NCBI GenBank assembly: GCA_025359265.1
Contig: JANYHB010000035.1
Span: forward strand, 58,084-122,083
Direction: 5' to 3'
Length of the DNA stretch: 64,000 bases
Source: Hyphomicrobiales bacterium
Lineage (GTDB): Bacteria > Pseudomonadota > Alphaproteobacteria > Rhizobiales > Aestuariivirgaceae
Positions 21,729 through 39,215 of the stretch are shown piece by piece. Position 1 is the first letter of the stretch. Each line of letters starts with the position of its first letter. The translations under genes and the position numbers were made by a program. Under the pieces are notes generated by a model that saw only the letters and a program-made list of their open reading frames with translations, did not search any database and was not told the origin of the DNA.

Positions 21729-21762
21729 GTTACCCTCAACAGTGCCGGGCAGCACAGGCAAT

Positions 21763-22071: not shown

Positions 22072-22120
22072 TCTCACGTCTGTAATCCCCAAATTGAATT
22101 GAGGCTATACTTTCTACAAG

Positions 22121-22139: not shown

Positions 22140-22355
22140 TCACACTTTGTCCTCGCAATAGGCTTTGCGCCTGAGGTTGTTGCGCCGAATGTCATTGATC
22201 GAAGCCGTTGTGTCATGGTGACTGGCGTAAGATAATGGCCGCCATACAAGGCACACGAGGGGTTCAGACGGGGCTGTCGCGGTCCAGCGGGTCTGGCGCG
22301 TCTGGCAGGCGCTCAAGATCAGCGCGGCCAGCAGCGCCAAGGCGATTTTGTTCAT
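22140..22355 (-). CDS. Outer-membrane lipoprotein, o-spanin (Rz1-like)
   Basis: MNKIALALLAALILSAC lipobox, two further Cys, GAGGA RBS; begins inside the upstream gene. Confidence 0.7.
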   Translation of the reverse strand: MNKIALALLAALILSACQTRQTRWTATAPSEPLVCLVWRPLSYASHHDTTASINDIRRNNLRRKAYCEDKV

Positions 22356-22482
22356 GGCGTAAATCCTCCTCGCGTTGCATGGCAGCACCAATGTCGCGCT
22401 CCTGCGCCCTGTCTTGGCTGGCGGCGCGCCCTTGAAATAATTTGAGCAAGCCCGCACAGATTTCCAGAAATAGGCGCAGCAT
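22264..22482 (-). CDS. Putative i-spanin (Rz-like)
   Basis: Hydrophobic N-terminus MLRLFLEICAGLLKLF, charged helical body, Pro/Asp tail; 92-nt overlap with the lipoprotein. Confidence 0.6.
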   Translation of the reverse strand: MLRLFLEICAGLLKLFQGRAASQDRAQERDIGAAMQREEDLRHEQNRLGAAGRADLERLPDAPDPLDRDSPV

Positions 22483-22484
22483 GT

Positions 22485-22664
22485 TTACTTAATCGTCTTG
22501 CCAGTCTTATTGGTGTGCACAGACCAAACGGCGGTCAACAGTGCGATAAAGCCTGTTGCCACGGCAGCATAATCGCCCGTGGGTAATATGCCCTTGCCCA
22601 CAAGGTATGCGATGGCCGGAGGGAAAATGGCGCGGACAATGCCGCCAATCATGTCGGAATTCAT
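22485..22664 (-). CDS. Putative holin, 59 aa, two TM segments (not in the ORF track)
   Basis: Manual translation MNSDMIGGIVRAIFPPAIAYLVGKGILPTGDYAAVATGFIALLTAVWSVHTNKTGKTIK; AGGTG RBS; basic C-tail; lies between endolysin and spanins. Confidence 0.7.
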   Translation of the reverse strand: MNSDMIGGIVRAIFPPAIAYLVGKGILPTGDYAAVATGFIALLTAVWSVHTNKTGKTIK

Positions 22665-22710
22665 AAGGTCACCTACGATATTGTAATGCCGGAAGCCGTC
22701 CGGCGCGGGA

Positions 22711-23181
22711 TTAGAAATGCGCGGCTTGAAAGTGCATGCGGTCCCGCGGTAAATTCACCCAGCCCTCGGCAGCAAAGGCCTTTAAAACTTCGTCACAAAA
22801 CCGTGGTGAAGTGCGCCCCATGGGAAATCGTTGTGGGGCTAAATCAATCGCGCACCCATAAGCGTGCATCGACAAATGGTTTGAACCGCGCATCCGTCTG
22901 AAATTAAATGAGCCACCAAATTCAGAAACGCCCCACGCATCAATCTTCCTCTGCTCTTGGCCAGACGCCAGCCAAATTGCTTGCAACACGCGCAGCAAAC
23001 TATCTGCACATTTGCGGTGGATTGTGATGTGTGCAACCGGCGTACCCATAAAGTGCATCGCAAAGGGCGGCGTTACATGCGTGAGGTTTTGCGCTTTCCA
23101 CAGCATAGCAGCCTTGCCGTCAGGCCCACGCGGATTTCCATAGAAGGCATCTGCCTCCGATTGTTTGGGCCAGTCAATCAT
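22711..23181 (-). CDS. M15-family peptidase endolysin
   Basis: FNFRRMRG, SMHAYGCAID and DRMHFQ zinc-ligand motifs; no signal peptide. Confidence 0.88.
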   Translation of the reverse strand: MIDWPKQSEADAFYGNPRGPDGKAAMLWKAQNLTHVTPPFAMHFMGTPVAHITIHRKCADSLLRVLQAIWLASGQEQRKIDAWGVSEFGGSFNFRRMRGSNHLSMHAYGCAIDLAPQRFPMGRTSPRFCDEVLKAFAAEGWVNLPRDRMHFQAAHF

Positions 23182-23190
23182 GTTTTGCTT

Positions 23191-23409
23191 TCAGGATTTG
23201 ATAACAGAAAAAACGCGCAGGGCGTGTTCAAGTGCCGCTCCCAAAGTGGTGGCTAAGCCAATCGTCACCACCAAAAGCCGCCATCCGCCGCGAGCGCTGG
23301 TCACCGCATCGCGAATTTCGCGGATGTCGCTGCGTACAGCCTGCAACTCATGTTCAACGGCTTCCATGCGCGCCTGCAAATTGCCCAGTTCGCGTTCAAT
23401 GGATGTCAT
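23191..23409 (-). CDS. Small coiled-coil plus C-terminal TM protein in the lysis region
   Basis: Heptad-rich N-terminus, then GGWRLLVVTIGLATTLGAAL. Confidence 0.6.
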   Translation of the reverse strand: MTSIERELGNLQARMEAVEHELQAVRSDIREIRDAVTSARGGWRLLVVTIGLATTLGAALEHALRVFSVIKS

Positions 23410-23411
23410 GT

Positions 23412-24302
23412 TCACCACGCTTGAATGATCACCAGGCCGCCACCGCCGGTTCCACCGATGCCGCCACCGCCGCCACCGCCGCCAGAGCCTATCGCGCCGC
23501 GCCCGCCATTGCCGCCACTGGCTGCGTTGGATGCGCCGCCACCAGCCCCGCCCGAGGTTCCGAATGGCTTCGACGACAGAAAGCCGTCGCTGCCATTGTT
23601 GCTGCCGGCGGCGGCGCCGTTAATTGTGGGGAACCAACCGCCACCCGTAATGGCCCCACCCGCGAAGTCAGCACTGGTGGTGCCACCACCGCCGGCGCCA
23701 CCGCAAATCTGCACGGAATTGCTGCCCCAAACCACTGCCGCTCCAACGCCGCCCGCAACCGCACCGCCCGCCCCACCGCTCACCCCCGGCGAGGTACTAA
23801 AGCTGCCTAAATTAAGCATCGTTGTCATGCCGATTGATGTGGCCCCGGCCCCTGCGGTGCCAACAGCCGCCGCCGAGCCGCCGCCGCCGCCCACTGCACC
23901 GGTGCCCCCGCCGATCACTCTATTTTGCGCCAACAAATCAGGCCGTACCGCCACCGCTGACGTGCCGCCGTTGCTGCCCGCCACTCCAGCGGCTCCCACG
24001 GCTCCGCCAAGGCCCACATTGATATACAGTGGGTCAGGCAAGGCGCCCAACACCTCGTCCACGAAGGAAATCGAGGTGCGGTGAATGGCGCCGCCACCGC
24101 CACCGCCGCCGCCGCCCCGCGCACTGCCCGCCGTTGCACCAAAGCCACCGCCGCCGCCTGCACCCGCGCTGATGCAGATAATTTCAACGTGGCTTTTGCC
24201 GCGTGGCCTGGTCCACGTCTGCCAATCGCCAGCACCTTGCGCATAGAAAACCTGCGCCTTTGCACCGTTTTTAGAATTGGGAATATGTGAAAAATCCAGC
24301 AT
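23412..24302 (-). CDS. Glycine-rich tail-fibre/tail-associated protein
   Basis: WTRPRG...IICISAGAGGGGG and C-terminal GGGGLVIIQAW, typical of phage glycine-rich domains. Confidence 0.7.
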   Translation of the reverse strand: MLDFSHIPNSKNGAKAQVFYAQGAGDWQTWTRPRGKSHVEIICISAGAGGGGGFGATAGSARGGGGGGGGGAIHRTSISFVDEVLGALPDPLYINVGLGGAVGAAGVAGSNGGTSAVAVRPDLLAQNRVIGGGTGAVGGGGGSAAAVGTAGAGATSIGMTTMLNLGSFSTSPGVSGGAGGAVAGGVGAAVVWGSNSVQICGGAGGGGTTSADFAGGAITGGGWFPTINGAAAGSNNGSDGFLSSKPFGTSGGAGGGASNAASGGNGGRGAIGSGGGGGGGGIGGTGGGGLVIIQAW

Positions 24303-24727
24303 CAGTATTGCCCGCCGATCACCGACACTTGATAGCCAGCCGCGACCGCCGTTCCCAACGTAACATTGAGTTTATAACCGGCAGGCAAAACAAAATTCAG
24401 CGGCAACACAAGATCAGGCTGCGCGGAAATTTCAGTTAGCGTTGAGGCTGGCAGCGTTAGCTCGGCAATCAACGAATTATTGGCCGCCGTGGTGTTCACC
24501 CCGCCATTGTTGATGAACACGCGCAGCACCGTTGCCACATTCGTCCCCAAAGTGCGGGCCACAAGTTTTTGCAAAAAGTTGCCGGCGTTGTTGCCCACGT
24601 TGTTGCCGGTGGCAATCGTGGTTACCACACCGGTTCCATCTTTGGCGGTGTTTGCGGCGGTTAGAGCTGCGGCACCCCATTGAATGGAACCAAGCGTTGA
24701 AAAAATCGGTTGGGTATTGGCTGGCAT
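24302..24727 (-). CDS. Hypothetical phage tail-associated protein
   Basis: 141-aa beta-rich ORF (MPANTQPIF...VIGGQY) coupled between the fibre genes. Confidence 0.55.
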   Translation of the reverse strand: MPANTQPIFSTLGSIQWGAAALTAANTAKDGTGVVTTIATGNNVGNNAGNFLQKLVARTLGTNVATVLRVFINNGGVNTTAANNSLIAELTLPASTLTEISAQPDLVLPLNFVLPAGYKLNVTLGTAVAAGYQVSVIGGQY

Positions 24728-24736
24728 TTGAATCTC

Positions 24737-25996
24737 CTAATTCATGATGAGAAAATTGGCGGCCATCTGGCCCTGCAGATTGATGGCAACTTGCATTTGA
24801 TCCACCGTTAAATCCGCAGGTGCTGCGACAACCGCAGTATTGTTTGCCTTGAAAGTAAACGCGGCCATGGGGGCAAGCTTGGCATTGCCCACCACGCCCG
24901 CCGCAATCGTCAGGGCCAGTGATCCGGCCGCATTGGTCACATCGCCCGTGTGGGCAGGCTCTTGGGCGGCTTGCAGCGTGCCAATAACTTGGGTGGTTAA
25001 ATTCACTGAAGCCGCTATGGCCAATGCGCCAAGGCCTGAAACGTCAGTTGCAGCAATCGCAAGCAAGGCTTTCACTTGCGCTGCTGTCAAAGCCAGTGGC
25101 GTGGCTGATGCAACCGAGTTGTTTCCCAAAATACTGTTGGCCGCCATATTTGCCATCTTCGGCAAACTCACGGCTGCATTGGAAAGCGTCACCGCACCCG
25201 TGGCTGTGTTGATGGTGGCGTCGCCAGAAGCGGTAAAGCCGCCAAACGCGGTGCCATTTTTGTATTGTATTTGGCCAGACGTGCCGGCCGCTGCGCCACT
25301 GCCCGCGGCATCGACATATTGCTTCGTGGCAACGCCCAGGGGATCAGTCGGGTTGGCAAATACTTTGGCCAAGCCCGAGCTTGCATCAACAATAATACCT
25401 TCCTTCCACAACGCGCCATCAGGGCTCACCTTGATGTGAAAGCTGTCATCGCCCGTCGCACCCAACTCAGCGCGGCCAGAAAATCCGGTTTGATAAAGCA
25501 GACTTGCCGTATCTGCTAAAGCATTTTTATTGAACTTCAGCTGAATCCCATTGCCAACGTTGTTGAACAAAACCGCTGAAGAACTCACAGCCAGTTTATT
25601 GATGGCATCAGCCGTGGCATTAACGCCCAAGAGGCTCATGTTCTGCAAAATTTGCGGCACGGGAGGTGCCACCCAGTTTACGCCATCATAGATCAGGAAA
25701 ATATTTTCGGCCTCAACCCACAGCGCCCAGCCTTTGCGCGGCGTCAAAAATTGCCAAAGTCCGGCGTTACGAAAGGCAATCAACCCGGCCTGCCCTAACC
25801 ATTCAGCAAGGGGTGCCGCCCCAATCAGAAAGCGATTGCCGTCAATGTACGTGCCGGGCGGCGCATTAAGGCCACGGGAAATAACTGACAGCTGCAATAG
25901 TCCATCAATCAACGCCAGGGCATCGTTATGCGGCACATGTTTCTGCGCCTGGTTTGCCAAAATATAGGGCAACGCCAGATTGGGAGAATTAGGCAT
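24737..25996 (-). CDS. DUF2793-domain tail fibre protein with C-terminal repeats
   Basis: NLALPYILANQAQKHVPHNDALALIDGLLQ; overlaps the megatron stop. Confidence 0.85.
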   Translation of the reverse strand: MPNSPNLALPYILANQAQKHVPHNDALALIDGLLQLSVISRGLNAPPGTYIDGNRFLIGAAPLAEWLGQAGLIAFRNAGLWQFLTPRKGWALWVEAENIFLIYDGVNWVAPPVPQILQNMSLLGVNATADAINKLAVSSSAVLFNNVGNGIQLKFNKNALADTASLLYQTGFSGRAELGATGDDSFHIKVSPDGALWKEGIIVDASSGLAKVFANPTDPLGVATKQYVDAAGSGAAAGTSGQIQYKNGTAFGGFTASGDATINTATGAVTLSNAAVSLPKMANMAANSILGNNSVASATPLALTAAQVKALLAIAATDVSGLGALAIAASVNLTTQVIGTLQAAQEPAHTGDVTNAAGSLALTIAAGVVGNAKLAPMAAFTFKANNTAVVAAPADLTVDQMQVAINLQGQMAANFLIMN

Positions 25997-28900
25997 TCAT
26001 CGTCCTTTCAAGAATGGCACCTTGGCCAAACACTTGGCTGGTTTGCGAAACGCGCGCGGTGAGGGCAATTGGCCCCGCGCCAAAATCGGTCAAAATGTCG
26101 GCGGCAAGGTAAACATATGAAGGCGTTGCCGTTTGGATGCTGCGCTTCACCACGCCGGCCTTCACAATGTCGAGCCGGTAACTCTCGAGTGTTTCCGAAA
26201 GCGGCACCTCGGCCACTTCCCAACTGTCACCATCCACGCGCGTGCGCCTGATCCAGCTGATGATCAGCCCCGCAGGATCTTTCTTCACCTGCAAATATGT
26301 GGGAGGCAAGGGTCGCAGTGCCCGCAGGCCGCCGGGATAAACGATCTCCACATAAGCCGAATTTCCATAATCCACCTGTGATGGCCCAATGCGCCACGTG
26401 GCCCCTTGGCCCGCTTCACTCACTGTCATGGCGGGCTGGGTTAAAGCCGCGTTCAGCAAAACCGCAGTTTGGCCTGAGGGCCGCGTGGATAGCATCTCCG
26501 GCTCTGACCCCGCCTGCGCCCGCAACAGGCCCGAAAGCCTGTAGGTATTTGCGGCAATCAGTGTGGCATTCTGGAACTGCACAATCTCAAAGCCATTGGC
26601 ACCTGTTCCAATCGCCAAGGCGTTGCCACCGCTCAACAATGCGTCGCGATCAATGGATGAAAATGTGCCGCTGCGCAGTTGCACATCGAGCGTTTGATTA
26701 AAATCAACGCGCCCCGTCAATCCTGCATTCAGCGCCGTCAGCGTTGAACCAACGGTGGCCGCCTGATTGATCAATTGGTTGAATGCAAAACTGGCCGCGC
26801 CGGTTTTCTTGAAAATCGCATCACTGCCCGGCCAAGGCGTGGCTTGCACCGCAAGGCGCGGAGCAGCAGCGTTGCTCGAATCTGCCAAAGCCAAATCCAT
26901 CATCACAACTTCCGCCGGCCCGTAAATCGCCGGCATCGGCGTGGTTATTGGCCGTGTTACACCTGAGGGGCCATCAATCACCGCGTTATCTTGCGCCACG
27001 GCTTCAATCTTGCGTGTGGCCCCCGCCAAAATGCTCTTGATGCGCCAACGATCAGCATTGATCTGCACAATATCGCCAGGCTCAATGGCTTCCCAATGGG
27101 GTGGCAATGCAAATTGTGCTGTGGTGCGGGCGGCCCAGGCATCAGCCAATAAATAATCGGCTCGCGCTTGTGCCTGATTTTGTGGAATGGCTACGGCAAA
27201 GTTAATGCCAATTTCGTTTTTGCTGGAGGTGGCGCTGCGCCATTGTGCAACGGCCGCTTGGCGGTAGTCCAATCCACTTTCCATATAGGCCAGATGAACG
27301 GCCACCGGCAAATCCGTTTCCTGCGCCCGGTGCATCGTGATCAAAGCCGATGCTTTGGCATCGTCGATTAAATCTGTGGGCGGCACGCTGATGCTGGCGG
27401 TGCGCTGCCTGCTGGTGAATTTGAGCTGGCCGACACTTTCAACTGCGTTGATGCCATAGACATTCAACACGGTTTCCAAGGCTTCACGTGCAGACATTTG
27501 CTTGTCCAGCACATAACCATCAATCAAGCCTTCCACCGCGCTTACATCACAATCAGTCAGGCTAAAACGCGCCGCAATGGCGCTGATAACACTTGCCAGA
27601 TCAAGGCTGCCAACGCGCCCGTTCAGCCAATGGCCGCGCGCGTAATTTCCGGCATCGCCCCACACATCGCTGCGCGCCGGAAAAGCCGGATAGGGCCTTG
27701 CGTCCCAACACCAGATTGAAGTGCGAGAAACATCCAGCATCGGGGCACCATAGAGCGCTGAAATAGGATTTTGGGCTGGGCCGACATTCCAATAATCCAA
27801 ACTGGCCCTTATAAAGGCCAGTTGAATTTGCGTGTCAGATTGTGCTCCGGAATAATAGGGCACCGTGCTTTCGGCAGATTTCGGATCAACAAATACATTG
27901 GGCTGATTGGTGCCTTTGTCGATGGCGGCACAGCCAATCTCGGTAAACCAGATGGGTTTGGATTGGGCAATCCAACTGCTGGCTGTCGCGCTTTCCACGC
28001 CGCTTGGTCGGTTAAAATGCGCGTTGCTCCACCAGCTTTTTAAATCCTTGGGGCGAAACACCCATGGCTTGTTGTAAGCGCCATCGGTTATGGGCCTGCG
28101 CAGTTGTGCGTCGCGTGCCGCCTGGTTTGCATAATACCAATCATAAAGTTCGCCACCGGCAATGCGTGATTGCAAGTAGGTGCGATCATAAATCGAGCGT
28201 GTGCCCGCAATATAATCTAAATGCGCCGTGCCATCGCGCCAGTCGCTCAGCGGAAAATAATTATCAATGCCGACGAAATCCACGTTGAGCGAAGACCACA
28301 GGGGGTCGAGATGGAAATAAACATCGCCGCTTCCATCGCTCGGTTGATAGCCGAAGTATTCGCTCCAATCCGCCGCATAAGAAATCTTCGCCGCGGGCAA
28401 AATGGATTTCACGTCAGCGGCTAAAGTTTGCAGTGCTGCAACAAAGGGAAAGGTGCCGGCGGCTGAGCGCAACGTGGTGAGCCCACGCAGTTCACTGCCA
28501 ATCAAAAACGCATCAACCCCGCCCGCCAAGGCACAAAGTTTTGCATAATGCAAAATCATGCGGCGATAGCTCCATTCGCTGCCCGCAAAGGTTACGGTGT
28601 CCAAGCCATTCACAAATTGTGCGGCCGTGGCGGTGCCTACAAAACTGGCGATTTCTGTGGCGAGTGCAGAAGTTTTATCCGGCGTGCCTGAAAGGCCTGG
28701 GGCTTTTGAGGCGGTGATGCGCCCGCGCCATGGATAGGCTGCCTGCGCGGCTGCGCCATAGGGATCAGGCAAGGCATTGCCGGATGGAATATCCATCAAG
28801 ATGAAGGGATAGAACATCACCTTCAACCCACGCGCCCGCAAATCCTGAATGGCGTGGATCACTGAGGCATCAGATGGTGTGCCGCCATAGGCCGCGTTGC

Positions 28901-29858
28901 CATTGCTGCGGCTGACAACACGCGCTGCACTGCGCGTTTGGCCGCTGACGCTCCACGTTCCACCGGTTGTCATTTTGGCGGAATCATCAACACCCGGCAT
29001 CAGTTGGGCTGAGGCACAGCGCAAATCATTGGCGAACCATGAAACCACCAGTGATGCCATGCCCGCGTTGGGGCAGCTCCGTTGCAGCTGATCCATGGAA
29101 ACCGAAAAGTCGCTGCGCACGGCGCTCACATGGGTATTCTCACTGAGCGTCACACCCGGCCCACCGTTGCGCGTCACCAAGTTTGTGTCGTAACCAAACT
29201 CGGTTGCACCAGGAATAATGTTAACCGCGCGCACCAGCGAAGCCGTATCATTGCCCTTGGTAAAAATTTCGAAGGATAGTTGCGGCAAGCGATTGCCGAA
29301 CGAGGCCAACGGTAAACGTTCAAACACCAGATAGGCCAATCCGCGATAGGCGGGTGCTGAGTCCGCGCCCTCAATGGCGCTAATCAAACTGTCGGCGGTT
29401 TGGGATTCGCTGCCCGTGTATATGCGTGGCGTGTAAGTGGAAAGATCAATCTCCTTGCCATCCGCCCAACAGCGGCCAAGGCCTTGTATCGGCCCTTCGC
29501 ACAGCCCCACTGCAAAATTTGCGTAATAACCGTATTGCGTGTTGGTGTTTTGCGGCCCGATGCCTTTGCCGCCTTGTGTTGTGGTTGCGGCCACTTCCAA
29601 TATATTCGTGGCCCAAATCACCTGGCCGGCAATGCGCATGCGTCCATAAACCACCGGAACAGCGGCACCTTCTTGCGAGGCCATCACCGATAAGCTGTTA
29701 ATGCACGGGCCTTCGCGGTGTGTTGGCGTGCCGAATATGGCTTGATCAACCACCGCACCGGCAAGGCCGCCAACCGCGCGGCCAATGATGCCGCCAATGG
29801 GGCCTCCCAGCAGCGTGCCCAAGGCAGCGCCAGCATATTGTAAAACCACTGTTGCCAT
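25989..29858 (-). CDS. GTA baseplate/megatron protein (RcGTA g15-like, GTA TIM-barrel)
   Basis: 1289 aa; PAYRGLAYLVFE, YAADWSEY, GIDNYFPLSDWRDG, WFTEIGC. Confidence 0.93.
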   Translation of the reverse strand: MATVVLQYAGAALGTLLGGPIGGIIGRAVGGLAGAVVDQAIFGTPTHREGPCINSLSVMASQEGAAVPVVYGRMRIAGQVIWATNILEVAATTTQGGKGIGPQNTNTQYGYYANFAVGLCEGPIQGLGRCWADGKEIDLSTYTPRIYTGSESQTADSLISAIEGADSAPAYRGLAYLVFERLPLASFGNRLPQLSFEIFTKGNDTASLVRAVNIIPGATEFGYDTNLVTRNGGPGVTLSENTHVSAVRSDFSVSMDQLQRSCPNAGMASLVVSWFANDLRCASAQLMPGVDDSAKMTTGGTWSVSGQTRSAARVVSRSNGNAAYGGTPSDASVIHAIQDLRARGLKVMFYPFILMDIPSGNALPDPYGAAAQAAYPWRGRITASKAPGLSGTPDKTSALATEIASFVGTATAAQFVNGLDTVTFAGSEWSYRRMILHYAKLCALAGGVDAFLIGSELRGLTTLRSAAGTFPFVAALQTLAADVKSILPAAKISYAADWSEYFGYQPSDGSGDVYFHLDPLWSSLNVDFVGIDNYFPLSDWRDGTAHLDYIAGTRSIYDRTYLQSRIAGGELYDWYYANQAARDAQLRRPITDGAYNKPWVFRPKDLKSWWSNAHFNRPSGVESATASSWIAQSKPIWFTEIGCAAIDKGTNQPNVFVDPKSAESTVPYYSGAQSDTQIQLAFIRASLDYWNVGPAQNPISALYGAPMLDVSRTSIWCWDARPYPAFPARSDVWGDAGNYARGHWLNGRVGSLDLASVISAIAARFSLTDCDVSAVEGLIDGYVLDKQMSAREALETVLNVYGINAVESVGQLKFTSRQRTASISVPPTDLIDDAKASALITMHRAQETDLPVAVHLAYMESGLDYRQAAVAQWRSATSSKNEIGINFAVAIPQNQAQARADYLLADAWAARTTAQFALPPHWEAIEPGDIVQINADRWRIKSILAGATRKIEAVAQDNAVIDGPSGVTRPITTPMPAIYGPAEVVMMDLALADSSNAAAPRLAVQATPWPGSDAIFKKTGAASFAFNQLINQAATVGSTLTALNAGLTGRVDFNQTLDVQLRSGTFSSIDRDALLSGGNALAIGTGANGFEIVQFQNATLIAANTYRLSGLLRAQAGSEPEMLSTRPSGQTAVLLNAALTQPAMTVSEAGQGATWRIGPSQVDYGNSAYVEIVYPGGLRALRPLPPTYLQVKKDPAGLIISWIRRTRVDGDSWEVAEVPLSETLESYRLDIVKAGVVKRSIQTATPSYVYLAADILTDFGAGPIALTARVSQTSQVFGQGAILERTMNA

Positions 29859-30292
29859 TATTTTATCTCAGTCGGAAATCGATAAGCAAAGGCCAATCAC
29901 GAAAGCCACCAATGCGCCAGCGGCACTTCACTCACGGCCACACCCTCTTGCGCGTGGATCATGGTGGAACGGCTCGTTGCTATGCCTGCGTGCTTGGCGG
30001 GAAGATGTGGCTTCCAACGGAACAACAACACATCGCCCGCTTCAAAAACCAATGGCGGAATCTCAATTAAATGCCTTCGACCCGCATCAGCCAACGTTTC
30101 TTCCAAGCCAGCCTCGGCCCAATCAGGCGCATAGGCGGGTGGCACCTCTGGTTCGGCTCCCAAGGCTTCGCGCCAAATTCCGCGCACCAGGCCCAGGCAA
30201 TCGCAGCCCATGCCTTTTAAACTCGCTTGGTGTTGATAAGGCGTGCCAAGCCATCCTCTGGCCAGGTCAATGATTGAAGGTTTTATCATCAT
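29858..30292 (-). CDS. GTA NlpC/P60 peptidase (g14-like) with an in-frame TGA at 29897-29899
   Basis: WLGTPYQHQAS, GCDCLGLVRG, KHAGI; the frame continues after the TGA as LAFAYRFPTEIK to a TAA overlapping the g15 ATG. Confidence 0.85.
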
Positions 30293-31167
30293 CAGCGTTT
30301 CAAGCCGTTGTTGTTTGGGTCGCTCTTGGCGGCAACACTCGCCACAAAATCATTGCCCGGCATATGCGGGAAGCCGCGAAAATTAACCGCGTTGGAAAAC
30401 TTGGCACGGCAGGTTTCAATCTGCTTGTCGCAGCCTGCGACCAAGCTAACTTGCTCGCCCACAGCCACGCTGAATTTGGGAGACATCCACAATTCAATGC
30501 GAACCGGTGCGCCGGAGCGGTGCCGCTTGATATCAACTTGCCTGCCGATGTTCGGCGCACTTAAAAATCGCAGCGTACCCTTGCTGAACCAGTCATCGGC
30601 AAAGGCACTTAGGCCGCTGACGTCAAAACCACTTTCACGCACGGCGGAAAGCGTTGCCGTTGCCGTAAAGTTCGAACTGTTCACGCCACAGCGCGCATCA
30701 CCCAGCAAAGCATCACAACCGTGATGATAAAGCCGGCCTTTTTTCTGGTTCATCAAATGCGCCAGCCCACGCACCTCGGCTTTGAAAGCGCCCTGGCCAA
30801 AAGTCACTTCCCCCAAATGGCCTTTGCGTTCCAGCGTGCGCTGCGTGGCATCTTGCCAATTCACTTTCCACACTTCAATTTGCGCGTGGTCAAAATCTCC
30901 CGATGCAATCGGGCTTTCTGAAAGTTTGCCTGAACTCAAAGCACCTGAGGCTTCAAGATTGTCGACACTTAAGCCCAGGGACGATTGAATTTCAGTTGCA
31001 CTAAATCCGGCCTGTGCTTCAAAGGATGTACCATCAAAAATCACCGCAACATCGTGATCCGTAAAGCCCAGTTTCTCGCCCGTGGCCAAGGTCAAACGCC
31101 AGCAATAACAAAGCGTTGTAAGCCCCGTTTGAAGGTGTGCTTGAAGGGCAGGATCAAGCACTCTCAC
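30292..31167 (-). CDS. GTA baseplate hub protein (DUF2163, g13-like)
   Basis: LGFTDHD, CDALLGDARCG, GCDKQIETCRAKFSNAVNFRGFPHMPG. Confidence 0.93.
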   Translation of the reverse strand: MRVLDPALQAHLQTGLTTLCYCWRLTLATGEKLGFTDHDVAVIFDGTSFEAQAGFSATEIQSSLGLSVDNLEASGALSSGKLSESPIASGDFDHAQIEVWKVNWQDATQRTLERKGHLGEVTFGQGAFKAEVRGLAHLMNQKKGRLYHHGCDALLGDARCGVNSSNFTATATLSAVRESGFDVSGLSAFADDWFSKGTLRFLSAPNIGRQVDIKRHRSGAPVRIELWMSPKFSVAVGEQVSLVAGCDKQIETCRAKFSNAVNFRGFPHMPGNDFVASVAAKSDPNNNGLKR

Positions 31168-31790
31168 AGCCGCACCTCAATCAAGGGGATGGACGGAATA
31201 TCGCCCGCTGCAAAATGGGCCAGATTGATTTTGATCTCGTCGGTATCAAACCGCACCGGCACATCAAATTCAAAACCCGCCGCGATCACCGCGCCATTGG
31301 GCGGAATGCTTCCAGCGTTAAAGGTTATCAATCCCGTGGTCACATCCACGCTGAACTGCGTTGTCGCAACGCCGTTCAGGCTCACTAACAAGGTGCCTGC
31401 AACAGGTGCCGTCACAGGCCGTGCCCACGGGCGCGCTGTGCCGTAATTTTTCACCAGTTGAAAGACGGCCGTTACACCATCCCCAGCACCCAGCACTTGA
31501 TCAATGGCGCTCGGCGTTTGCGATGGCTTGCAAGATTTCCAATCGGTATGATCTTTGAACCGAAACGCATAGAGCTTGCCGCGCCGCTCTTCGAAAAAGG
31601 CCACAACGGCGTGAATGTCGTCCAGTGATTTAACACCATAGCCCGCGTTATATTTGCGCCGTGAATTGGCCCAGCGGGCATTGCGTTCTTCGCGGCCTGA
31701 TGCGGTCATCACCACATCAGTGCGCCGCTCTGGTCCACCGGCCAACCCGCGTGAAATGGCCACGGGAAATCTCACATTGTCAAAAGCCAT
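31164..31790 (-). CDS. GTA distal tail protein (DUF2460, g12-like)
   Basis: VRFPVAISRG..GGPERRTDVV, AGFEFDVPVRFDTD. Confidence 0.95.
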   Translation of the reverse strand: MAFDNVRFPVAISRGLAGGPERRTDVVMTASGREERNARWANSRRKYNAGYGVKSLDDIHAVVAFFEERRGKLYAFRFKDHTDWKSCKPSQTPSAIDQVLGAGDGVTAVFQLVKNYGTARPWARPVTAPVAGTLLVSLNGVATTQFSVDVTTGLITFNAGSIPPNGAVIAAGFEFDVPVRFDTDEIKINLAHFAAGDIPSIPLIEVRL

Positions 31791-31805
31791 ATTACTGGTT
31801 CCCCG

Positions 31806-32345
31806 TCACATATTCCGCTGCGCGCGCAGCAATGCCTGGCTGATCATGGCAGACACCTGGTTTTGGCTTTGTGCAAAACTCTGCACATCAGGTGTGGAGA
31901 TATTCACCGTCACATTCATGCCGCCGCCGCCGCGAATTCCCAGCGAGCCATCAGCGCCGCGTGCCAAAGGCATGATGGCTTCCGGGCCCGCTTCTCCCAT
32001 CAATCCCGTTCCGCCGTTCATGGCAAAAAGTGTTGGTGAATTCACAATGCCACCATCGGCAAAGGGCATAACACTGCCGCCAGAAAATACGTTGCCCTTG
32101 GCGTTGGCGAACAGCCCGCCGATCAATCCTGCCAAAGGCTTCAACGCCGCAGTCAAGGCGGTTTGACTGAGGCTTAACACCATGCCTTTCAAGATGTCAG
32201 AGAGGCTTTTTCCGTGCACCACTGCACTGGCCAGGCCCGTCACCAACTTATTGCTGAAGGTGTCTGCAAGAGTGGAAAGGTCTTCCATCTGGGCTCGCAG
32301 TTCTGCCGCGGTTTGGGAGAGATCAGTGGCTTGATTCTGGTTCAT
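31806..32345 (-). CDS. Short tape measure protein (g11-like)
   Basis: 179 aa; FADGGIV, GLMGEAGPEAIMPLARGADGSLG. Confidence 0.9.
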   Translation of the reverse strand: MNQNQATDLSQTAAELRAQMEDLSTLADTFSNKLVTGLASAVVHGKSLSDILKGMVLSLSQTALTAALKPLAGLIGGLFANAKGNVFSGGSVMPFADGGIVNSPTLFAMNGGTGLMGEAGPEAIMPLARGADGSLGIRGGGGMNVTVNISTPDVQSFAQSQNQVSAMISQALLRAQRNM

Positions 32346-32523
32346 CGGGGAATAAATCCATCAGGGTTAAAAGGTTCTGGCGCAGCATGGGTTGGGGAGG
32401 GGCACCCATTGCCGCAGCAAGTTCACGCGGCGTGCTGCGCCAGAATTCAGCGGGGGCCAGATGCAATCGGTCAAAGCCAATGTGCATCATGCGCGCCCAG
32501 GGAAATTTTTGGGGTTCGCTCAT
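32323..32523 (-). CDS. Tail assembly chaperone (rcc01693/g10.1-like)
   Basis: FPWARMMHIG...FWRSTPREL...LMDLFPD. Confidence 0.88.
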   Translation of the reverse strand: MSEPQKFPWARMMHIGFDRLHLAPAEFWRSTPRELAAAMGAPPQPMLRQNLLTLMDLFPDEPESSH

Positions 32524-32828
32524 GCGGCAAACGTTGCCTTCAATAAATCCGCAACAATGCGCAGGAAGCCTGCAGCACCGCCCGCCACAGAAAGGCGCGC
32601 AACGTCCTCGTTCGTCAGAGTTGCACCGGCACCGCGCAGGCCAGCGCCAATCATCAAAATGGCATCGCTCGCCTTAATGCGCCCGCTTTCAAAACGCTCA
32701 GCAATGGCGATCATGTCTTCGCCGCCGTAAGCGTCTTCAATTTCGGCCAGCGCCCCAAGGGTGAGCACGAGTGTATAGTTCTGCCGGCCTAGTTCAGCTT
32801 CAATTTCACCACGATGTCTGTTGGCCAT
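32520..32828 (-). CDS. GTA-gp10 family tail chaperone
   Basis: MANRHRGEI...LTLGALAEIE. Confidence 0.92.
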   Translation of the reverse strand: MANRHRGEIEAELGRQNYTLVLTLGALAEIEDAYGGEDMIAIAERFESGRIKASDAILMIGAGLRGAGATLTNEDVARLSVAGGAAGFLRIVADLLKATFAA

Positions 32829-32891
32829 GCTACTTTTCCTGTAATCAAGCATTCTCGAAATCGCACTATTCCGCGCAAGCGGTGTGTCAGC

Positions 32892-33299
32892 TCAAGCAAA
32901 AGCGAGCAGGCCAGCGCTAACCAGGCTCAGATCAAACGTCACCTCGCCATCATGCTTGCCACCAAAATCCAGCGAAGCAATTTGAAACGGGCCCGTAACG
33001 GTGCCAAAGGCCGGAATGACAATTTGCCAATTCACAATGTTGCCGTTGAAGAAATAGCCGCGCATGGTGGCGTCAGAAGCAGCGTTCTTGAAAATACCCT
33101 GGCCTTTGATCTGTGCGGATTTCAAACCCGCCCCGGCCAATAATTCTTTCCACGCGCCGGTGGAGTCTTGTGATGAGGCGTCCACCACTTCGGAATTAAA
33201 GGTCAAGGTATTGGCACGCAGCCCGGCCACGGTGATGTAAACGCCAGCGCCGGTTGAATCAACTTTCAGTAAAAGATCTCGGCCCTTTTGTGCGGCCAT
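32892..33299 (-). CDS. Major tail tube protein (g9-like, TP901-1 type)
   Basis: MAAQKGRDLLLKV...WKELLAGAG. Confidence 0.95.
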   Translation of the reverse strand: MAAQKGRDLLLKVDSTGAGVYITVAGLRANTLTFNSEVVDASSQDSTGAWKELLAGAGLKSAQIKGQGIFKNAASDATMRGYFFNGNIVNWQIVIPAFGTVTGPFQIASLDFGGKHDGEVTFDLSLVSAGLLAFA

Positions 33300-33311
33300 G
33301 GCGGTTCTCCA

Positions 33312-33719
33312 TTATTGCGGTTCAGTGGCAGCGCGAAAGCGCATCGTGGCGGTGAAATAGTCGGCGGCTTTCTGGCGCGTTGCGGAAATGAAAACGCACC
33401 GCAAATTCACTAAGTTGTGGCCGTTTAAAATAAGAGCCGCGCCATCAAGTGCTGTTTCAATTTCCTGGATGATGCTCTGCACTTGTGCGCGGCTGCGGCT
33501 TTTGGAATTTACATCCAGAGCCACAAAGGTTTCATGGGCCTTTTGATCGGCCACACTCCAATCGCGGGTTTCAATCGCGCTAAAGGCCACGTTGGGTACC
33601 GTGGCGCCGCGTGGCAGCTCGTCATAAATATGCGCGCCGCCCAATAATGAGGTGAGCGTGGTTCGCGCCGCAAGTGCGGCAAGCATCGCTTGTTGTACGG
33701 CAAGACCGGGTTGGTTCAT
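33312..33719 (-). CDS. Tail terminator (DUF3168, g8-like)
   Basis: 135 aa; AVQQAM.AAL...IYDELPRGA...MRFRAATE. Confidence 0.88.
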   Translation of the reverse strand: MNQPGLAVQQAMLAALAARTTLTSLLGGAHIYDELPRGATVPNVAFSAIETRDWSVADQKAHETFVALDVNSKSRSRAQVQSIIQEIETALDGAALILNGHNLVNLRCVFISATRQKAADYFTATMRFRAATEPQ

Positions 33720-34285
33720 GCCATCCTCGCATTGCGGTAAGCGGCCAAAGCTTCAAGCGCGGTGGCAGGAATAGTGCCGCCTGATGCATCGCCGCGGTTT
33801 TGATACCAATCGGCAACCGTGGCCATAACGGCCAATTTTATTTCTTGCGGAACGAATGTGGCATCCACACCAAAGCCTGCTGTAAAGGATAATTTCAAAC
33901 CGTTGATCGCGCGGGCTGGTTGCGTAAACACCCGGCCTTGCCGAAGCGCAACGCGCGACGGCCGCGTTCCCACATCCAGAAAATAAGCAGTCGGGTCAAT
34001 CGCGGTGGCCGTGTCGTCATCGGCATAAGATGTCAACCCATCAACTGATTGAACGGGCCACAGCGGAATTTTAAAGATCCGATCAATCGGCCAAGCATCA
34101 GCAAACAGTGCCCAGCTTTGCCGCATCAGGCAAAGGCCATAGCGGCTTTCAAGGGCGCGGCGCGCCGCACTGATGAGTGATGTCAGGTAAGCGTCGTCAT
34201 CAGCGATATAGATGCGCAGTTGCGCCTTCACATCGGCCAGCACAACGGGTTCCGCGCTCGGCGGAGTGGTGAGAATGAGAGCCAT
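33716..34285 (-). CDS. Head-tail connector/adaptor (g6-like)
   Basis: TPPSAEPV.LADVKAQLRI...FTAGFG...VPQEIKLAV...ADWYQNR. Confidence 0.9.
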   Translation of the reverse strand: MALILTTPPSAEPVVLADVKAQLRIYIADDDAYLTSLISAARRALESRYGLCLMRQSWALFADAWPIDRIFKIPLWPVQSVDGLTSYADDDTATAIDPTAYFLDVGTRPSRVALRQGRVFTQPARAINGLKLSFTAGFGVDATFVPQEIKLAVMATVADWYQNRGDASGGTIPATALEALAAYRNARMA

Positions 34286-34303
34286 GGCAATTCCTGAGAA
34301 AAG

Positions 34304-34342
34304 GCGAATGGCGAACAAGGGGTTTTCTCACTCGCCACTCGC
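34304..34342 (-). terminator. Hairpin after the capsid gene, possible terminator/attenuator
   Basis: GCGAATGGCGA / TCGCCACTCGC arms (one mismatch); CTTTTCT follows on the minus strand. Confidence 0.4.
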
Positions 34343-34348
34343 GGTTTT

Positions 34349-35551
34349 TTATGACACGTCGAACTTCAACATCTTGATGGCATCGAAATCCTGTATGCCG
34401 CCACCCACGCGCTTGGTTACATAGAAAAGCACGTAAGGCTTGGCCGTATAGGGGTCACGCAAGATGCGCACACCAATCCGGTCAACCACCAAATAGCCGC
34501 GACGGAAATCGCCGAAGGCAATGCCGAAAATGCCGGTCGCAATGTCGGGCATGTATTCGTTTTCCGTCACCGCAAAGCCCATCAACGTGGGCTTGCCATC
34601 GGCAGCCATCGCCGGTTGCCAGATATATTCATTCTGGTTGTCTTTGAATTTGCGGATCTGCGACTGGGTGTTGCGGCTCATCATGAAGCGGCCGTTGGCA
34701 CGGTAACCCGCCTTCACGGCATAAGCCAGATCAAGCAACTTGTCAGATGGCGCAACCGCCGGCCAACCGCCAGCGATACCCGTGGCGATGTAACCGGTGT
34801 TGCCCCAAGCCCAAGACGCTTGTGCCACTTTCGGATAAGTCAGCAAACCTTTGGGTGCGGTAATGCCGTCGCCATTGGTGAAGGCGTTGGTCTCCTGCTC
34901 GCCAAACACCACCTGCACTTCGCGCGCCATCCAATCATCAATGTTGACGATCGAGTCATCCAGCAAAGCCTGCGTTGCCGCCGGCATGGCATAGAGTTCC
35001 ATCGTCTGGAATGACAAGTTGGCCAAGGTGGCCGAGGTGGTTTGGGGCCGCGAGGCCGTTTCACCAATCCATCCGGCTTGATGGCCATTGGTATTGAAGG
35101 GCTTGTTATGCACGAAGGCCGAAACCTGGCGCACGTCACAAAACTCACGAAATGGTGAAGCCTTGGATATCAAACGGCCAATTTCCGCTTCAGTTTCAGG
35201 TGGCACGAGATAGCCACCGTCTTGGCCAGAGCCAATCGACATGGCCTTGGCTTCCATGGTGTTGAGGGCGAAGGTGTCACCCTTGCGCACATAGGCGTCG
35301 AACGCCTTCTTGTGTTCGCTGGGTTCGATCAGCGTTGCCGCCGAAAGCTGTGGGCGGCGCGATTTCAACGTCAGATCATCAATCGCCTTGTTGATGCGAT
35401 CCACCTTTTCAGAGGTGATCACATCGGCACTCTGGCGCTTTTCAATCTGGCCCAAGCGTTCGTCATTGGCATCCTTGAAAGCTTCAAAGGCCACCAATAC
35501 ATCATCATAGTCAGCGGTGGGTGTGGCCACCTTGGTTTCTAAACTATCCAT
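34349..35551 (-). CDS. HK97-fold major capsid protein (g5-like)
   Basis: DGGYLVPPE, IAFGDFRRGYLVVDRIG, RDPYTAKPYVLFYVTKRVGG. Confidence 0.96.
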   Translation of the reverse strand: MDSLETKVATPTADYDDVLVAFEAFKDANDERLGQIEKRQSADVITSEKVDRINKAIDDLTLKSRRPQLSAATLIEPSEHKKAFDAYVRKGDTFALNTMEAKAMSIGSGQDGGYLVPPETEAEIGRLISKASPFREFCDVRQVSAFVHNKPFNTNGHQAGWIGETASRPQTTSATLANLSFQTMELYAMPAATQALLDDSIVNIDDWMAREVQVVFGEQETNAFTNGDGITAPKGLLTYPKVAQASWAWGNTGYIATGIAGGWPAVAPSDKLLDLAYAVKAGYRANGRFMMSRNTQSQIRKFKDNQNEYIWQPAMAADGKPTLMGFAVTENEYMPDIATGIFGIAFGDFRRGYLVVDRIGVRILRDPYTAKPYVLFYVTKRVGGGIQDFDAIKMLKFDVS

Positions 35552-35565
35552 TCAGTCATACTCCA

Positions 35566-36087
35566 TTAGGGTTGGGCGGTTGGTTTTTGAAAATGTGAGT
35601 CTGCCCTTGCCCGGCTGCGAGACTTCACGGCACTCACGCGCGCACCTTGCAACATGGGGAAGGTAACGAGCGATATTTCCCAAAGATCGATGTTGGTCAG
35701 AAGTCTGGCGCCCGTGGCACGATCTTTGCCTGCGCTGACGGTTTTGAACCCGATGGAAAGCCCATCAATCCCGCCGCTTTCCAAGAGTGAAAGCAGCTCA
35801 TGGCCGCGCTGCACATTTTTGTTCAGGCGGCCCATTACATAAAGACCCTTGTCGTTCTCACGCACTTCCAGCCAGCTGCCCACCGGCTCTGCCGGGTCAT
35901 GCTGAAACAACATGCGAATATCTTCGGCCGGTCGTCTTATCAGCGAGGTATGAAACGCCCCGGGCATGACAATATCGCCGGATTGATCACGCTGACCAAA
36001 CAGCGATGCATAGCCAGAAAAAACGCCAGAGCCGGAAGCGGCCGACAAAGGCACCTCCAGCCCGCGCCGTGAAAGACGTGGGGACAT
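35566..36087 (-). CDS. HK97-family prohead protease (g4-like)
   Basis: FSGYASLFG, MLFQHDP, DGLSIGF, LWEISLVTFPM. Confidence 0.95.
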   Translation of the reverse strand: MSPRLSRRGLEVPLSAASGSGVFSGYASLFGQRDQSGDIVMPGAFHTSLIRRPAEDIRMLFQHDPAEPVGSWLEVRENDKGLYVMGRLNKNVQRGHELLSLLESGGIDGLSIGFKTVSAGKDRATGARLLTNIDLWEISLVTFPMLQGARVSAVKSRSRARADSHFQKPTAQP

Positions 36088-36117
36088 GTGATCGATTTCT
36101 CTTTGTATTATTTTGGC

Positions 36118-36203
36118 CGTCATCCCCGCGAAGGCGGGGACCCAGCTCAGTTACAAGTTCTGAATCCAGTCATAGCTGGCCCCCTGCCTTCGCAGGGGTG
36201 ACG
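36118..36203. repeat. REP/RPE-like palindromic element inside the GTA cluster
   Basis: CGTCATCCCCGCGAAGGCGGGGACCCAGCT ... AGCTGGCCCCCTGCCTTCGCAGGGGTGACG, ~30-bp imperfect inverted repeats. Confidence 0.8.
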
Positions 36204-36225
36204 CTGATTAAACGGCAAGCCATGA

Positions 36226-37353
36226 TTACCGATACCCAACCGCTTGCCGCTTCTCGGCATCGGAGAGGAAGGTGGCATTGTTCACGCGCGTCCACAGCGC
36301 GTCGCGGTCGTGGCTGAGGGCTTCAACCTGGTCGAGATCCAGATCCAGCCGCAGGCCATGTTCAAATTGCGTTCCCACAAAGCCACTCAGCGCATCCGTT
36401 ACGCGGCGCACTGTGGGGATCACGGTTTGGCGCCAGAATACCCGGTTGGCTTCGGCAAAATTGGAATAGGTATTGTCACCAGGAATGCCCAACAACATCG
36501 GTGGCACGCCCAGAGCCAAGGCAATTTCGCGCGCTGCATTGTTTTTAGAATTGATGAAATCCATATCCTTGGGCGAAAAGCCCATCTCTTTCCAATCCAA
36601 GCCACCTTCCAACACCATCGGTCTTCCGGCATTGGCAGCACTTTGGAAATTGTCTTGAAGCTCAGACTTGAGGCGGTCGTATTGCTGTGGCGTTAACTGG
36701 CCATCGCCTCCGGAAAATACCAAAGCCCCGGAAGGACGGGCGGCATTATCCAGCATCGCCTTGTTCCAGGCCGCAGCGGCATTATGCGTGTCCAGGCTTT
36801 GGGCCGCCGCTTCCAGCGGTGATAGGCCGTAATAGTCGTCCAGCGGGTTGAACAGCTTAAGGTGCAAAATGTTCTCGGCTGGCAAATTTACAAATGCTCC
36901 GTTCACGGAGTATCTATAATCTTCAACCCACCCTTTGGCGCCGGGGATCACCTGCATCCGGTCTGGCCGCAAGGGCACCAGCTCGCGCGGGGTGCCATCC
37001 AAAGTTTGCACTTCCACATAAGCATTGCCCGCCACCAGAAGATAAGCCGTGATGGTTTCCAACAGTTCGCGCCGCGTCTGCGCCGGATTGGGCTGGGCCA
37101 GCAAATCCAGAAAGGCATGCGTCGCCAGCTCGACGGGCCCTTTATAAAGCAGCAACGGCACCGAAGCGACGGCCTCGGCAATCATCCGCACGCTGCGATA
37201 GGCCACCGCGTTGCCTGAAAATCCGGCGCGGGCAAAGTGTAAATAATTGCGCGGTGCCCAATAAGGTTGGCCCACATTATAGAGGCTAACCAAAGGCAAG
37301 GCGCCCACGGATTTTTTTTCGGGCGTGAAAATGGCTTGCAGTTTTTTAAACAT
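36226..37353 (-). CDS. HK97-family portal protein (g3-like)
   Basis: ILHLKLFNPLDDYYGLSPL, DNAARPSGAL, GVPPMLLGIPGDNTYSN; GGAG RBS. Confidence 0.96.
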   Translation of the reverse strand: MFKKLQAIFTPEKKSVGALPLVSLYNVGQPYWAPRNYLHFARAGFSGNAVAYRSVRMIAEAVASVPLLLYKGPVELATHAFLDLLAQPNPAQTRRELLETITAYLLVAGNAYVEVQTLDGTPRELVPLRPDRMQVIPGAKGWVEDYRYSVNGAFVNLPAENILHLKLFNPLDDYYGLSPLEAAAQSLDTHNAAAAWNKAMLDNAARPSGALVFSGGDGQLTPQQYDRLKSELQDNFQSAANAGRPMVLEGGLDWKEMGFSPKDMDFINSKNNAAREIALALGVPPMLLGIPGDNTYSNFAEANRVFWRQTVIPTVRRVTDALSGFVGTQFEHGLRLDLDLDQVEALSHDRDALWTRVNNATFLSDAEKRQAVGYR

Positions 37354-37423
37354 ATTTGCTCCTGTCCCCTCTCCGGCTAAGTGCAAGGCGTTGCATCGCA
37401 GCCTTGGCGTGGGAAGATAATAA

Positions 37424-38659: not shown

Positions 38660-39137
38660 TGCCGCTCCCATCCGCGCCCTCGCACAGGCCCGCAATGCGG
38701 CCCGCAAGTTCATCACGCTGGGCGTCATCCAGTTGCAGATTGTCTTGGCGGCGAGAGGTACGCTGCTTGCGATCTTTTTGTTCAAGCTCAAGAACCTTTT
38801 CCAATGTGCGCACCAAAGTATTGGCCGAACGAATGTCTCGCTCATTTGAAAGCGCGTTCAATTCTTGGCCAATGGCCCCAATCTCGCCCTCCAGCTGGAT
38901 CAAACGTTTGTGTAAAATTTCTTTCAGGCGGCGCAAAGTTTGGCGCGTGGTTTCAGACTTTGCCTTGGCCGGGTTTGAACCCCGCAAAGCCCAACCCAGC
39001 GCCTTGGCCCTGCGGCTGAGGGCTTGGCCGGTCATGTCGATCGATTTACCAATCTCGGTTACAGTTTCGTGCGCCAGCTCATAGCGATCACGCAAAGCGG
39101 CCCAATCGGGCACCAAGCCTTCAGTTTGTTCTGTCAT
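38574..39137 (-). CDS. Terminase small subunit (g1 position)
   Basis: N-terminal PDWAALRDRY...LSRRAKALGW HTH-like block, coiled coil, LDDAQRDELAGRIA; immediately upstream of TerL. Confidence 0.7.
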   Translation of the reverse strand: MTEQTEGLVPDWAALRDRYELAHETVTEIGKSIDMTGQALSRRAKALGWALRGSNPAKAKSETTRQTLRRLKEILHKRLIQLEGEIGAIGQELNALSNERDIRSANTLVRTLEKVLELEQKDRKQRTSRRQDNLQLDDAQRDELAGRIAGLCEGADGSGSEPHFDSAGSGSTAVGMATVGEGGSTSA

Positions 39138-39215
39138 TGTGTCTGTAAATCCCAAGCCCGCAAGGGGCAATTTAGAGAGCCACTGATTTCTGGACCCACT
39201 TCTGGAGTATGACCA

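Follow-up and report, generated by a model that had tools for sequence, protein, structure and literature searches.

The window analysed here is a stretch of 64,000 nt of contig JANYHB010000035.1 (assembly GCA_025359265.1) from a freshwater Aestuariivirga of the order Hyphomicrobiales, and its positions serve as coordinates below. On its minus strand it carries a gene transfer agent (GTA) cluster of the Rhodobacter capsulatus type (RcGTA type), at whose 3' end, after the fibre genes, lie five small open reading frames (ORFs). They encode a coiled-coil/transmembrane protein (ccTM), an M15 zinc peptidase, a two-transmembrane (two-TM) putative holin and an overlapped pair resembling an inner- and an outer-membrane spanin (i-spanin and o-spanin). 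The original prediction, made from the sequence alone, had described five co-oriented, closely spaced ORFs in this position, and we find all of them on the minus strand as given in Table 1. Taking the evidence together, we consider it likely that these genes form the release module of the RcGTA-type GTA of this genome.

Table 1. Positions of the five cassette genes, the intergenic hairpin and the adjoining GTA genes in the window
Feature	Length	Position	Strand	Characteristics
ccTM protein	72 aa	23191..23409 (ATG at 23409)	minus	N-terminal coiled coil, one TM segment at residues 44-61
M15 zinc peptidase	156 aa	22711..23181	minus	Pfam Peptidase_M15_4 (PF13539), 31.5 bits (cut-off 25)
Putative two-TM holin, class II-type	59 aa	22485..22664	minus	PF23987 Phage_holin_10, 32.1 bits (cut-off 27), residues 6-52
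i-spanin-like protein	72 aa	22264..22482	minus	N-terminal hydrophobic helix, charged helical region, conserved C-terminal PDPLDRD
o-spanin-like outer-membrane lipoprotein	71 aa	22140..22355	minus	Lipobox LSAC, Gln at +2, two further conserved Cys
Hairpin in the 46-nt M15-holin gap	6 bp	22688..22704	minus	Alignment A2, three stem variants with compensatory changes
RcGTA-type head-tail cluster, terS to g15		25989..39170	minus	Pfam matches; single copy in genome
g15	1289 aa	25989-29858	minus	Intact ORF
DUF2793 fibre, rcc00171-like		24737-25996	minus	DUF2793 at 4.5e-25
Fibre-region protein	141 aa	24302-24727	minus	Pfam/PHROG: none above threshold
Gly-rich fibre-region protein	296 aa	23412-24302	minus	Pfam/PHROG: none above threshold

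Endolysin, holin and ccTM genes

In addition to its Pfam family, the M15 peptidase matches phrog_17001, annotated 'endolysin', at 6e-24, and a profile made of the protein and its relatives matches Ply500, the L-Ala-D-Glu peptidase of a Listeria phage (PDB 2VO9, 1e-5). The zinc triad H-x6-D...H (H106, D113 and H150) is invariant in alignment A1, phage enzymes included. Its phage relatives reach identities of 47-48%, among them an enzyme of Aminobacter phage Erebus (47%), and identity to gp27 of the Pseudanabaena phage Pam3 is 36%. As no signal peptide was found in the peptidase, it would need a holin for its function; it is probably a canonical cytoplasmic endolysin with L-alanyl-D-glutamate peptidase activity.

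The candidate for this holin is encoded directly downstream. Its gene starts 46 nt past the M15 stop codon, preceded by an AGGTGA Shine-Dalgarno sequence, and its product has hydrophobic segments at residues 5-23 and 32-49 and a basic C-terminal tail, KTGKTIK. In Pam3, the founder of the Phage_holin_10 family, gp28, lies directly 3' of gp27, the related M15 gene, an order that marks the M15-holin pair as a recognisable two-gene phage module. The holin starts with MNSDM (window 22650-22664), and most orthologues retain the methionine at codon 5 (MNTDM, MNNDM, MMNADM); that translation could begin at either Met, as it does in lambda S, is pure speculation.

Eight of nine aligned Aestuariivirga genomes have a hairpin in the gap between the M15 and holin genes, its stem occurring as GCCGGA/TCCGGC, GCCAGA/TCTGGC or CCGTGG/CCACGG. 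It is part of the minimum-energy fold in three of four sequences, at an unexceptional energy (z about -1), and no T run follows it. The hairpin may influence holin translation or transcript processing. In the window, a second predicted hairpin includes both the Shine-Dalgarno sequence and the start codon of the holin.

The ccTM gene is the first of the swapped module, as which we regard the ccTM, M15 and holin genes for reasons given below. It was found in all M15-type clusters inspected, leaving out genome G016, whose contig ends inside the M15 gene, and is absent from the cluster of genome G009, which has a lysozyme of glycoside hydrolase family 24 (GH24) instead. Weakly ccTM-like small ORFs adjoin the endolysins of Rhodoferax phage P26218 and podovirus MW202691. 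Possibly, ccTM is a partner or regulator of the holin. The protein fits no known family; DUF1515 (PF07439) was considered but dropped, as its scores (17.6-19.6 bits) stay below the cut-off of 22.2 and a search of 41 genomes gave no informative homologues.

Linkage of the cassette to the GTA cluster

The cluster upstream of the cassette carries, by Pfam matches and in RcGTA order, genes for TerL, portal, S78 protease, HK97-type capsid, adaptor, a gp17-type tail completion protein and tube, then GTA-gp10, DUF2460, the hub domains Phage_phiJL001_Gp84_N and BR0599, NlpC/P60 and g15, followed by the DUF2793 fibre. The trio of fibre-region genes (23412..25996) is kept in M15-type as well as GH24-type clusters of the genus. 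From g15 onward, the junctions measure -8, 9, -1, 2, 9, 46 and 2 nt and end with an overlap of 92 nt; given this operon-like spacing, the structural operon is probably transcribed through to the end of the cassette. A pattern scan found no excess of promoter- or terminator-like sites over shuffled sequence and is uninformative either way.

On the 5' side, the GTA cluster is flanked by genes for the subunits of an NAD-dependent formate dehydrogenase and fdhD, and on the 3' side by genes for a PepSY-like protein, an OmpR-type response regulator, a histidine kinase, an AraC/DJ-1 regulator and MTHFR; this 3' neighbourhood is shared by other members of the genus and by further families. At the GTA locus, whose position is stable and common to the relatives, we found no genes for an integrase, for replication or for a repressor. 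Genome-wide there is one GTA cluster and one lysis cassette, and no GH24, GH108 or GTA_holin_3TM (PF11351) gene was found in the window's genome. The prediction that the cassette belongs to the GTA locus is thus borne out by its equal placement in relatives, by the lack of phage lifestyle genes nearby and by its being the only such cassette in the genome. A lone tblastn match on contig C35 was considered as a second lysis system; it falls in the CHAP-like domain of a 355-aa protein near nusG/rplK, which is neither a GH108 enzyme nor a phage gene, and was therefore dismissed.

A survey of related GTA clusters for the same 3' cassette had also been suggested, and its M15 gene proved to hold a fixed place in those Aestuariivirga genomes that carry it. 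Reading the gene context of relatives from ORF listings and coordinate comparison, we found the M15 gene 2.5-3.2 kb 3' of g15 and on the same strand in about 25 species-level Aestuariivirga genomes, wherever the contig permits the check, with g15 identities to the window of 58-86%. One genome, G001, is an exception, with the M15 gene 7 kb from g15; here about 5 kb, including three genes on the opposite strand, are inserted between the 141-aa gene and the cassette (L016:9900-14900). These M15-bearing relatives are assigned to Aestuariivirga and are mostly metagenome-assembled genomes (MAGs), with isolate labels that apparently denote stream and lake samples. Outside the genus, M15 homologues lie far from g15, as seen in Mesorhizobium, Aquabacter, Methylocystis, Devosia, Rhizobium, Asticcacaulis and Alsobacter. 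In the seven relatives whose loci were read, the order ccTM-M15-holin is kept, and the PepSY, response regulator and kinase genes follow.

The identity of the M15 peptidase to its relatives (65-85%) tracks that of g15 (67-86%). All five ORFs are open in the relatives, with ratios of nonsynonymous to synonymous substitution rates (dN/dS) below 1, namely 0.26 for ccTM, 0.07-0.35 for the M15 peptidase, 0.03-0.19 for the holin and 0.29-0.67 for the i-spanin-like protein; dS is about 1 or more, and these near-saturated synonymous sites make the ratios rough. By this measure, the five cassette ORFs are under purifying selection.

To see which lysis genes occupy this position more widely, we sampled 24 Aestuariivirga genomes and 16 that represent other families of the order. 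Within Aestuariivirga, eight genomes have the M15 gene and nine the GTA_holin_3TM gene, never both. This pattern bears on the possibility that the cassette was left by an unrelated prophage, once integrated beside the GTA cluster, and is not used by the GTA. Such an origin would fit the fact that true phages harbour the closest relatives of the M15 peptidase and the spanin pair and, judged solely by its Pfam family, those of the holin, and that the module is unlike the GH108/3TM-holin set of other clusters. However, the stretch from the fibre genes to the host PepSY gene has no other prophage gene, with a spacing of 2-46 nt; the position is kept in about 25 species with g15 identities down to 58%; the mutual exclusivity with the 3TM-holin module is what functional replacement predicts; and all ORFs are under purifying selection in a genome without alternative lysis genes. 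On position, conservation and mutual exclusivity we therefore reject a separate prophage remnant as highly improbable.

The spanin-like pair and the case for a release module

The i-spanin-like gene starts 2 nt past the holin stop codon. The hydrophobic segment of its product covers residues 1-16 (maximum Kyte-Doolittle value 1.66), compared with residues 1-20/24 (2.16-2.37) in orthologues, and is followed by the charged region. The o-spanin-like gene overlaps it by 92 nt in the +1 frame and has a strong internal Shine-Dalgarno sequence, GAGGAGG; overlapped spanin-like architecture is seen also in the orthologues and phage homologues. The lipobox of the encoded lipoprotein, LAGC or LAAC in orthologues, fits the consensus [LVI][ASTVI][GAS]C, which together with conserved periplasmic Cys has been described for spanins (Kongari et al. 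2018, PMC6139136), and the lack of Asp at +2 is consistent with outer-membrane sorting. The protein scores 19.1 bits against Pfam LPAM_1 (0.0017; cut-off 20) and matches phrog_1275, 'Rz-like spanin', over its full length at 4e-4 (5.8e-5 for the G016 orthologue). In a large protein database, it found only itself and one relative; overlapped ORFs are rarely called as genes.

A homologous phage pair is found in Rhizobium phage RHph_TM3_14A. The i-spanin-like protein aligns end-to-end with the 68-aa EVB41_002 of this phage (pairwise E 5e-5), and the o-spanin-like protein shares 54% identity over 35 residues (pairwise E 3e-11) with the product of an unannotated ORF that overlaps EVB41_002, the common core being C.VWRP.SY..DT...IR.NN..R.AYC. 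The gene order in the phage is GH25 endolysin, small membrane protein, EVB41_002 and, overlapping it in the +1 frame, the lipoprotein. EVB41_002 and the overlapped lipoprotein look like an unrecognised short two-component spanin; the lipoprotein ORF is likewise unannotated in three sister phages (L117:2275-2611). The lysis region of podovirus MW202640 likewise closes with a comparable overlapped pair; there the lipoprotein follows the lysozyme.

Within Aestuariivirga, the pair was found in only about seven species genomes including this one, seven being the number with the motif EPLVCxxWxP, and would have been either added in, or retained by, one subclade only. The same slot holds a different protein of about 75 aa with two TM segments in three relatives and nothing in another. 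This substitute (…KEQLDKIARGEDPF…; L015:16835-17059, L040:1366-1641, L062:10662-10937) combines two hydrophobic segments with a charged tail, is encoded 3' of the holin and has no Pfam or PHROG match. In the searchable literature, we found no description of a spanin for any GTA, RcGTA included.

Gene identities and order agree with the prediction that the cassette is a complete set of the holin-endolysin-spanin type, whose lytic activity and spanin function we infer from sequence. By analogy with phage lysis, the two-TM holin would accumulate in the inner membrane late in particle production and trigger the formation of holes, through which the signal-less M15 peptidase would pass and cut the peptide stems of murein. 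Connected with each other through the periplasm, the short protein of the inner membrane and the lipoprotein of the outer one would then fuse or disrupt the outer membrane. In the weakest step of this scheme, ccTM, travelling with the M15/holin pair, would partner the holin in the membrane or regulate it.

Several observations weigh against a release module of this kind. They concern, firstly, the holin, the assignment of which rests on its family: tblastn against phages gave no match, so that the family was detected by the Pfam hidden Markov model alone, the pairwise match to Pam3 gp28 is weak (E 0.008), and the founder of Phage_holin_10 is itself annotated by name, with a putative function. 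Secondly, they concern the last two genes. The N-terminal helix of the i-spanin-like protein is only weakly hydrophobic here, 72 aa is unusually short for a periplasm-spanning role, and the protein has no Pfam or PHROG family match. Across four o-spanin-like orthologues, phrog_1275 is matched weakly, at 4e-4, 5.8e-5, 0.025 and not at all, and since close relatives lack the pair, with a different two-TM protein or nothing in its place, it may be dispensable. Thirdly, no literature report of GTA production in Aestuariivirga was found, and in the closest relative, G041, the ccTM gene has a frameshift (L033:2442-2661) and g15 a TAG codon.

The points on the last two genes could mean that they are not spanins, with the lipoprotein serving in Cor-like exclusion or receptor masking and the 72-aa protein as a holin regulator, so that the cassette would deal with two envelope layers only. 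A match of the lipoprotein to phrog_1119, 'Cor superinfection exclusion' (0.0017), can be added in favour of this explanation. That match, however, consists mostly of the signal peptide (residues 1-24, G016 orthologue), whereas the one to phrog_1275 covers the full length. A type II-like TM protein with a lipoprotein overlapped in the +1 frame, directly after the holin, is moreover spanin architecture, lipobox and periplasmic Cys fit the published consensus, and both genes have counterparts in overlapped pairs that end phage lysis cassettes. We thus think a non-spanin role of the pair unlikely, albeit worth keeping in mind.

The missing reports of GTA production and the lesion in G041 leave room for another explanation, namely that the GTA is inactive or decaying, or that the cassette serves some other host purpose, such as programmed lysis for the release of DNA or vesicles, and in either case releases no particles. 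Stop codons in g15 also occur in G068, and g15 is in two pieces in G059; these lesions, like those in G041, could be MAG errors or mark the onset of decay. Against inactivity stand the full head-tail set, present once, with its long ORFs intact including g15, and the similar rates at which structural and lysis genes diverge while remaining syntenic across many species. An inactive GTA or a cassette diverted to other ends therefore appears improbable to us, and we continue to favour the release module.

The lysis slot across the order and other release systems

Other clusters fill the same position with different genes. In G009 (L019:3386-4368), a GH24 lysozyme (3.4e-43) and a GTA_holin_3TM gene (2.6e-10) follow the Gly-rich gene, in the slot taken elsewhere by ccTM, M15 and holin, and neither ccTM nor a spanin was found there. 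Altogether, GTA_holin_3TM is present in 11 sampled genomes, nine of Aestuariivirga and two of other families, and lies 3' of g15 in all eight that can be assessed; in the two from the 16 other-family genomes, the distance to g15 is at most about 1 kb. GH108 was found as a single gene in six other-family genomes, immediately 3' of g15 in five of five assessable cases. By family, the in-line arrangement occurs in f3, f8, f9, f10 and f11 for GH108, and in f9 and f17 for the 3TM holin. The arrangement is common but not universal, as the slot of G039, a complete genome, shows no recognisable lysis gene of at least 90 aa.

Among the closest known systems is RcGTA itself, which likewise relies on a holin-endolysin pair for an RcGTA-type particle, the endolysin rcc00555 and the GTA_holin_3TM protein rcc00556 of R. 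capsulatus. In the Rhodobacterales, this pair is unlinked to the head-tail cluster (PMC5026251), whereas homologues of either or both (GH108 and/or PF11351) occupy the slot described here in other Aestuariivirga and in other families. The present module has an M15 peptidase instead of a glycosidase and a two-TM, Pam3-type instead of a 3TM holin. As the glycosidase/3TM-holin state is found in other families, the M15 module is most simply explained as a replacement in one Aestuariivirga lineage, that is, as a phage-derived, non-orthologous substitute for a GH-type endolysin and GTA_holin_3TM in the same slot, although the direction of the swap is deduced from this distribution. In G009, the holin is of the rcc00556 family but the endolysin is GH24, not GH108, indicating that the endolysin was exchanged more than once. 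Locus and survey together support vertical inheritance of the structural genes, with phage modules taking the place of the release genes.

The original prediction had regarded the in-line lysis set as such as an undescribed arrangement, and in this respect it does not hold. Of the large clusters with a 3' rcc00171 homologue, 22 in number, six continue directly with a homologue of the endolysin rcc00555 (Shakya et al. 2017, PMC5721377), and in our own sample, GH108 and the 3TM holin are in line in every assessable genome (5/5 and 8/8). Shakya, Soucy and Zhaxybayeva (2017, PMC5721377) took the adjacency for a remnant of an ancestral GTA with a single locus and called it anecdotal. The finding that Hyphomicrobiales release genes are usually in line with the structural genes fits such an ancestor. 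That study covers rcc00555-type endolysins only and mentions neither holins nor spanins nor non-orthologous replacements, and the same adjacency of rcc00171 and rcc00555 homologues exists in prophage-associated clusters of M. nodulans. What stands of the claimed novelty is the replacement of the module (M15, Pam3-type holin and ccTM) together with the added spanin pair in one subclade of one genus; this set is new, while in-line lysis genes were already known.

Parts of the module can be followed into replicating phages. In Pam3, both families recur in this order, gp27 (M15) before gp28 (holin), after the tail-fibre genes; the phage differs in an extra N-terminal domain of gp27, and neither ccTM nor a spanin pair is annotated. 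RHph_TM3_14A and its relatives, MW202640 and Erebus combine an endolysin, one or two small membrane proteins and an overlapped pair of TM protein and lipoprotein. In Erebus, an M15 enzyme is followed by two small genes and then by such a pair of spanin architecture, whereas in MW202640 the pair comes directly after the lysozyme. These are replicating phages, in which the endolysin families differ (GH25, GH24) and the pairs are putative spanins.

To our knowledge, the way a GTA leaves the cell is known for two systems only, R. capsulatus with its unlinked holin-endolysin pair and Caulobacter crescentus with LypABC. The study of the latter (2026) stresses that GTA release mechanisms are divergent (PMC13236601). 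Like the present locus, the C. crescentus system combines an RcGTA-type particle with a release system unlike that of R. capsulatus; it differs in that LypABC is an immune-system-like hub which forms ghosts non-explosively in a genome without holin or endolysin, whereas here we see a classical phage cassette. The candidate spanins of one subclade offer a testable answer to the question of how a GTA crosses the outer membrane, and with parts as small as these, function can be assayed in the lambda lysis-complementation systems of Escherichia coli.

More tentatively, and with doubts that outweigh our confidence, the 3' end of Hyphomicrobiales RcGTA-type clusters might be seen as an exchangeable release slot that recombines repeatedly with phages and has arrived at no fewer than four solutions within one genus: GH24 with a 3TM holin; ccTM, M15 and holin alone; the same three with the uncharacterised two-TM protein; and the same three with the spanin pair. 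If this were true, a step devoted to disrupting the outer membrane would be seen for the first time in a GTA, in the form that carries the spanins, and ccTM and the covarying hairpin would be new elements in the timing of GTA lysis.

Two further observations were made at these loci. In a genome of another family, G026 (L026:804-2099), a 431-aa protein encoded directly 3' of g15 unites CHAP, GH108 and PG_binding_3 domains and is hydrophobic towards its C-terminus; this may be a self-anchoring membrane endolysin that operates with no separate holin. The genes for the PepSY-like protein, the OmpR-type regulator and the histidine kinase (window 19691-22092) follow the GTA locus in several families, an unusually deep synteny, with the trio 3' of the GTA in L013, L019, L025, L026, L035 and L039.

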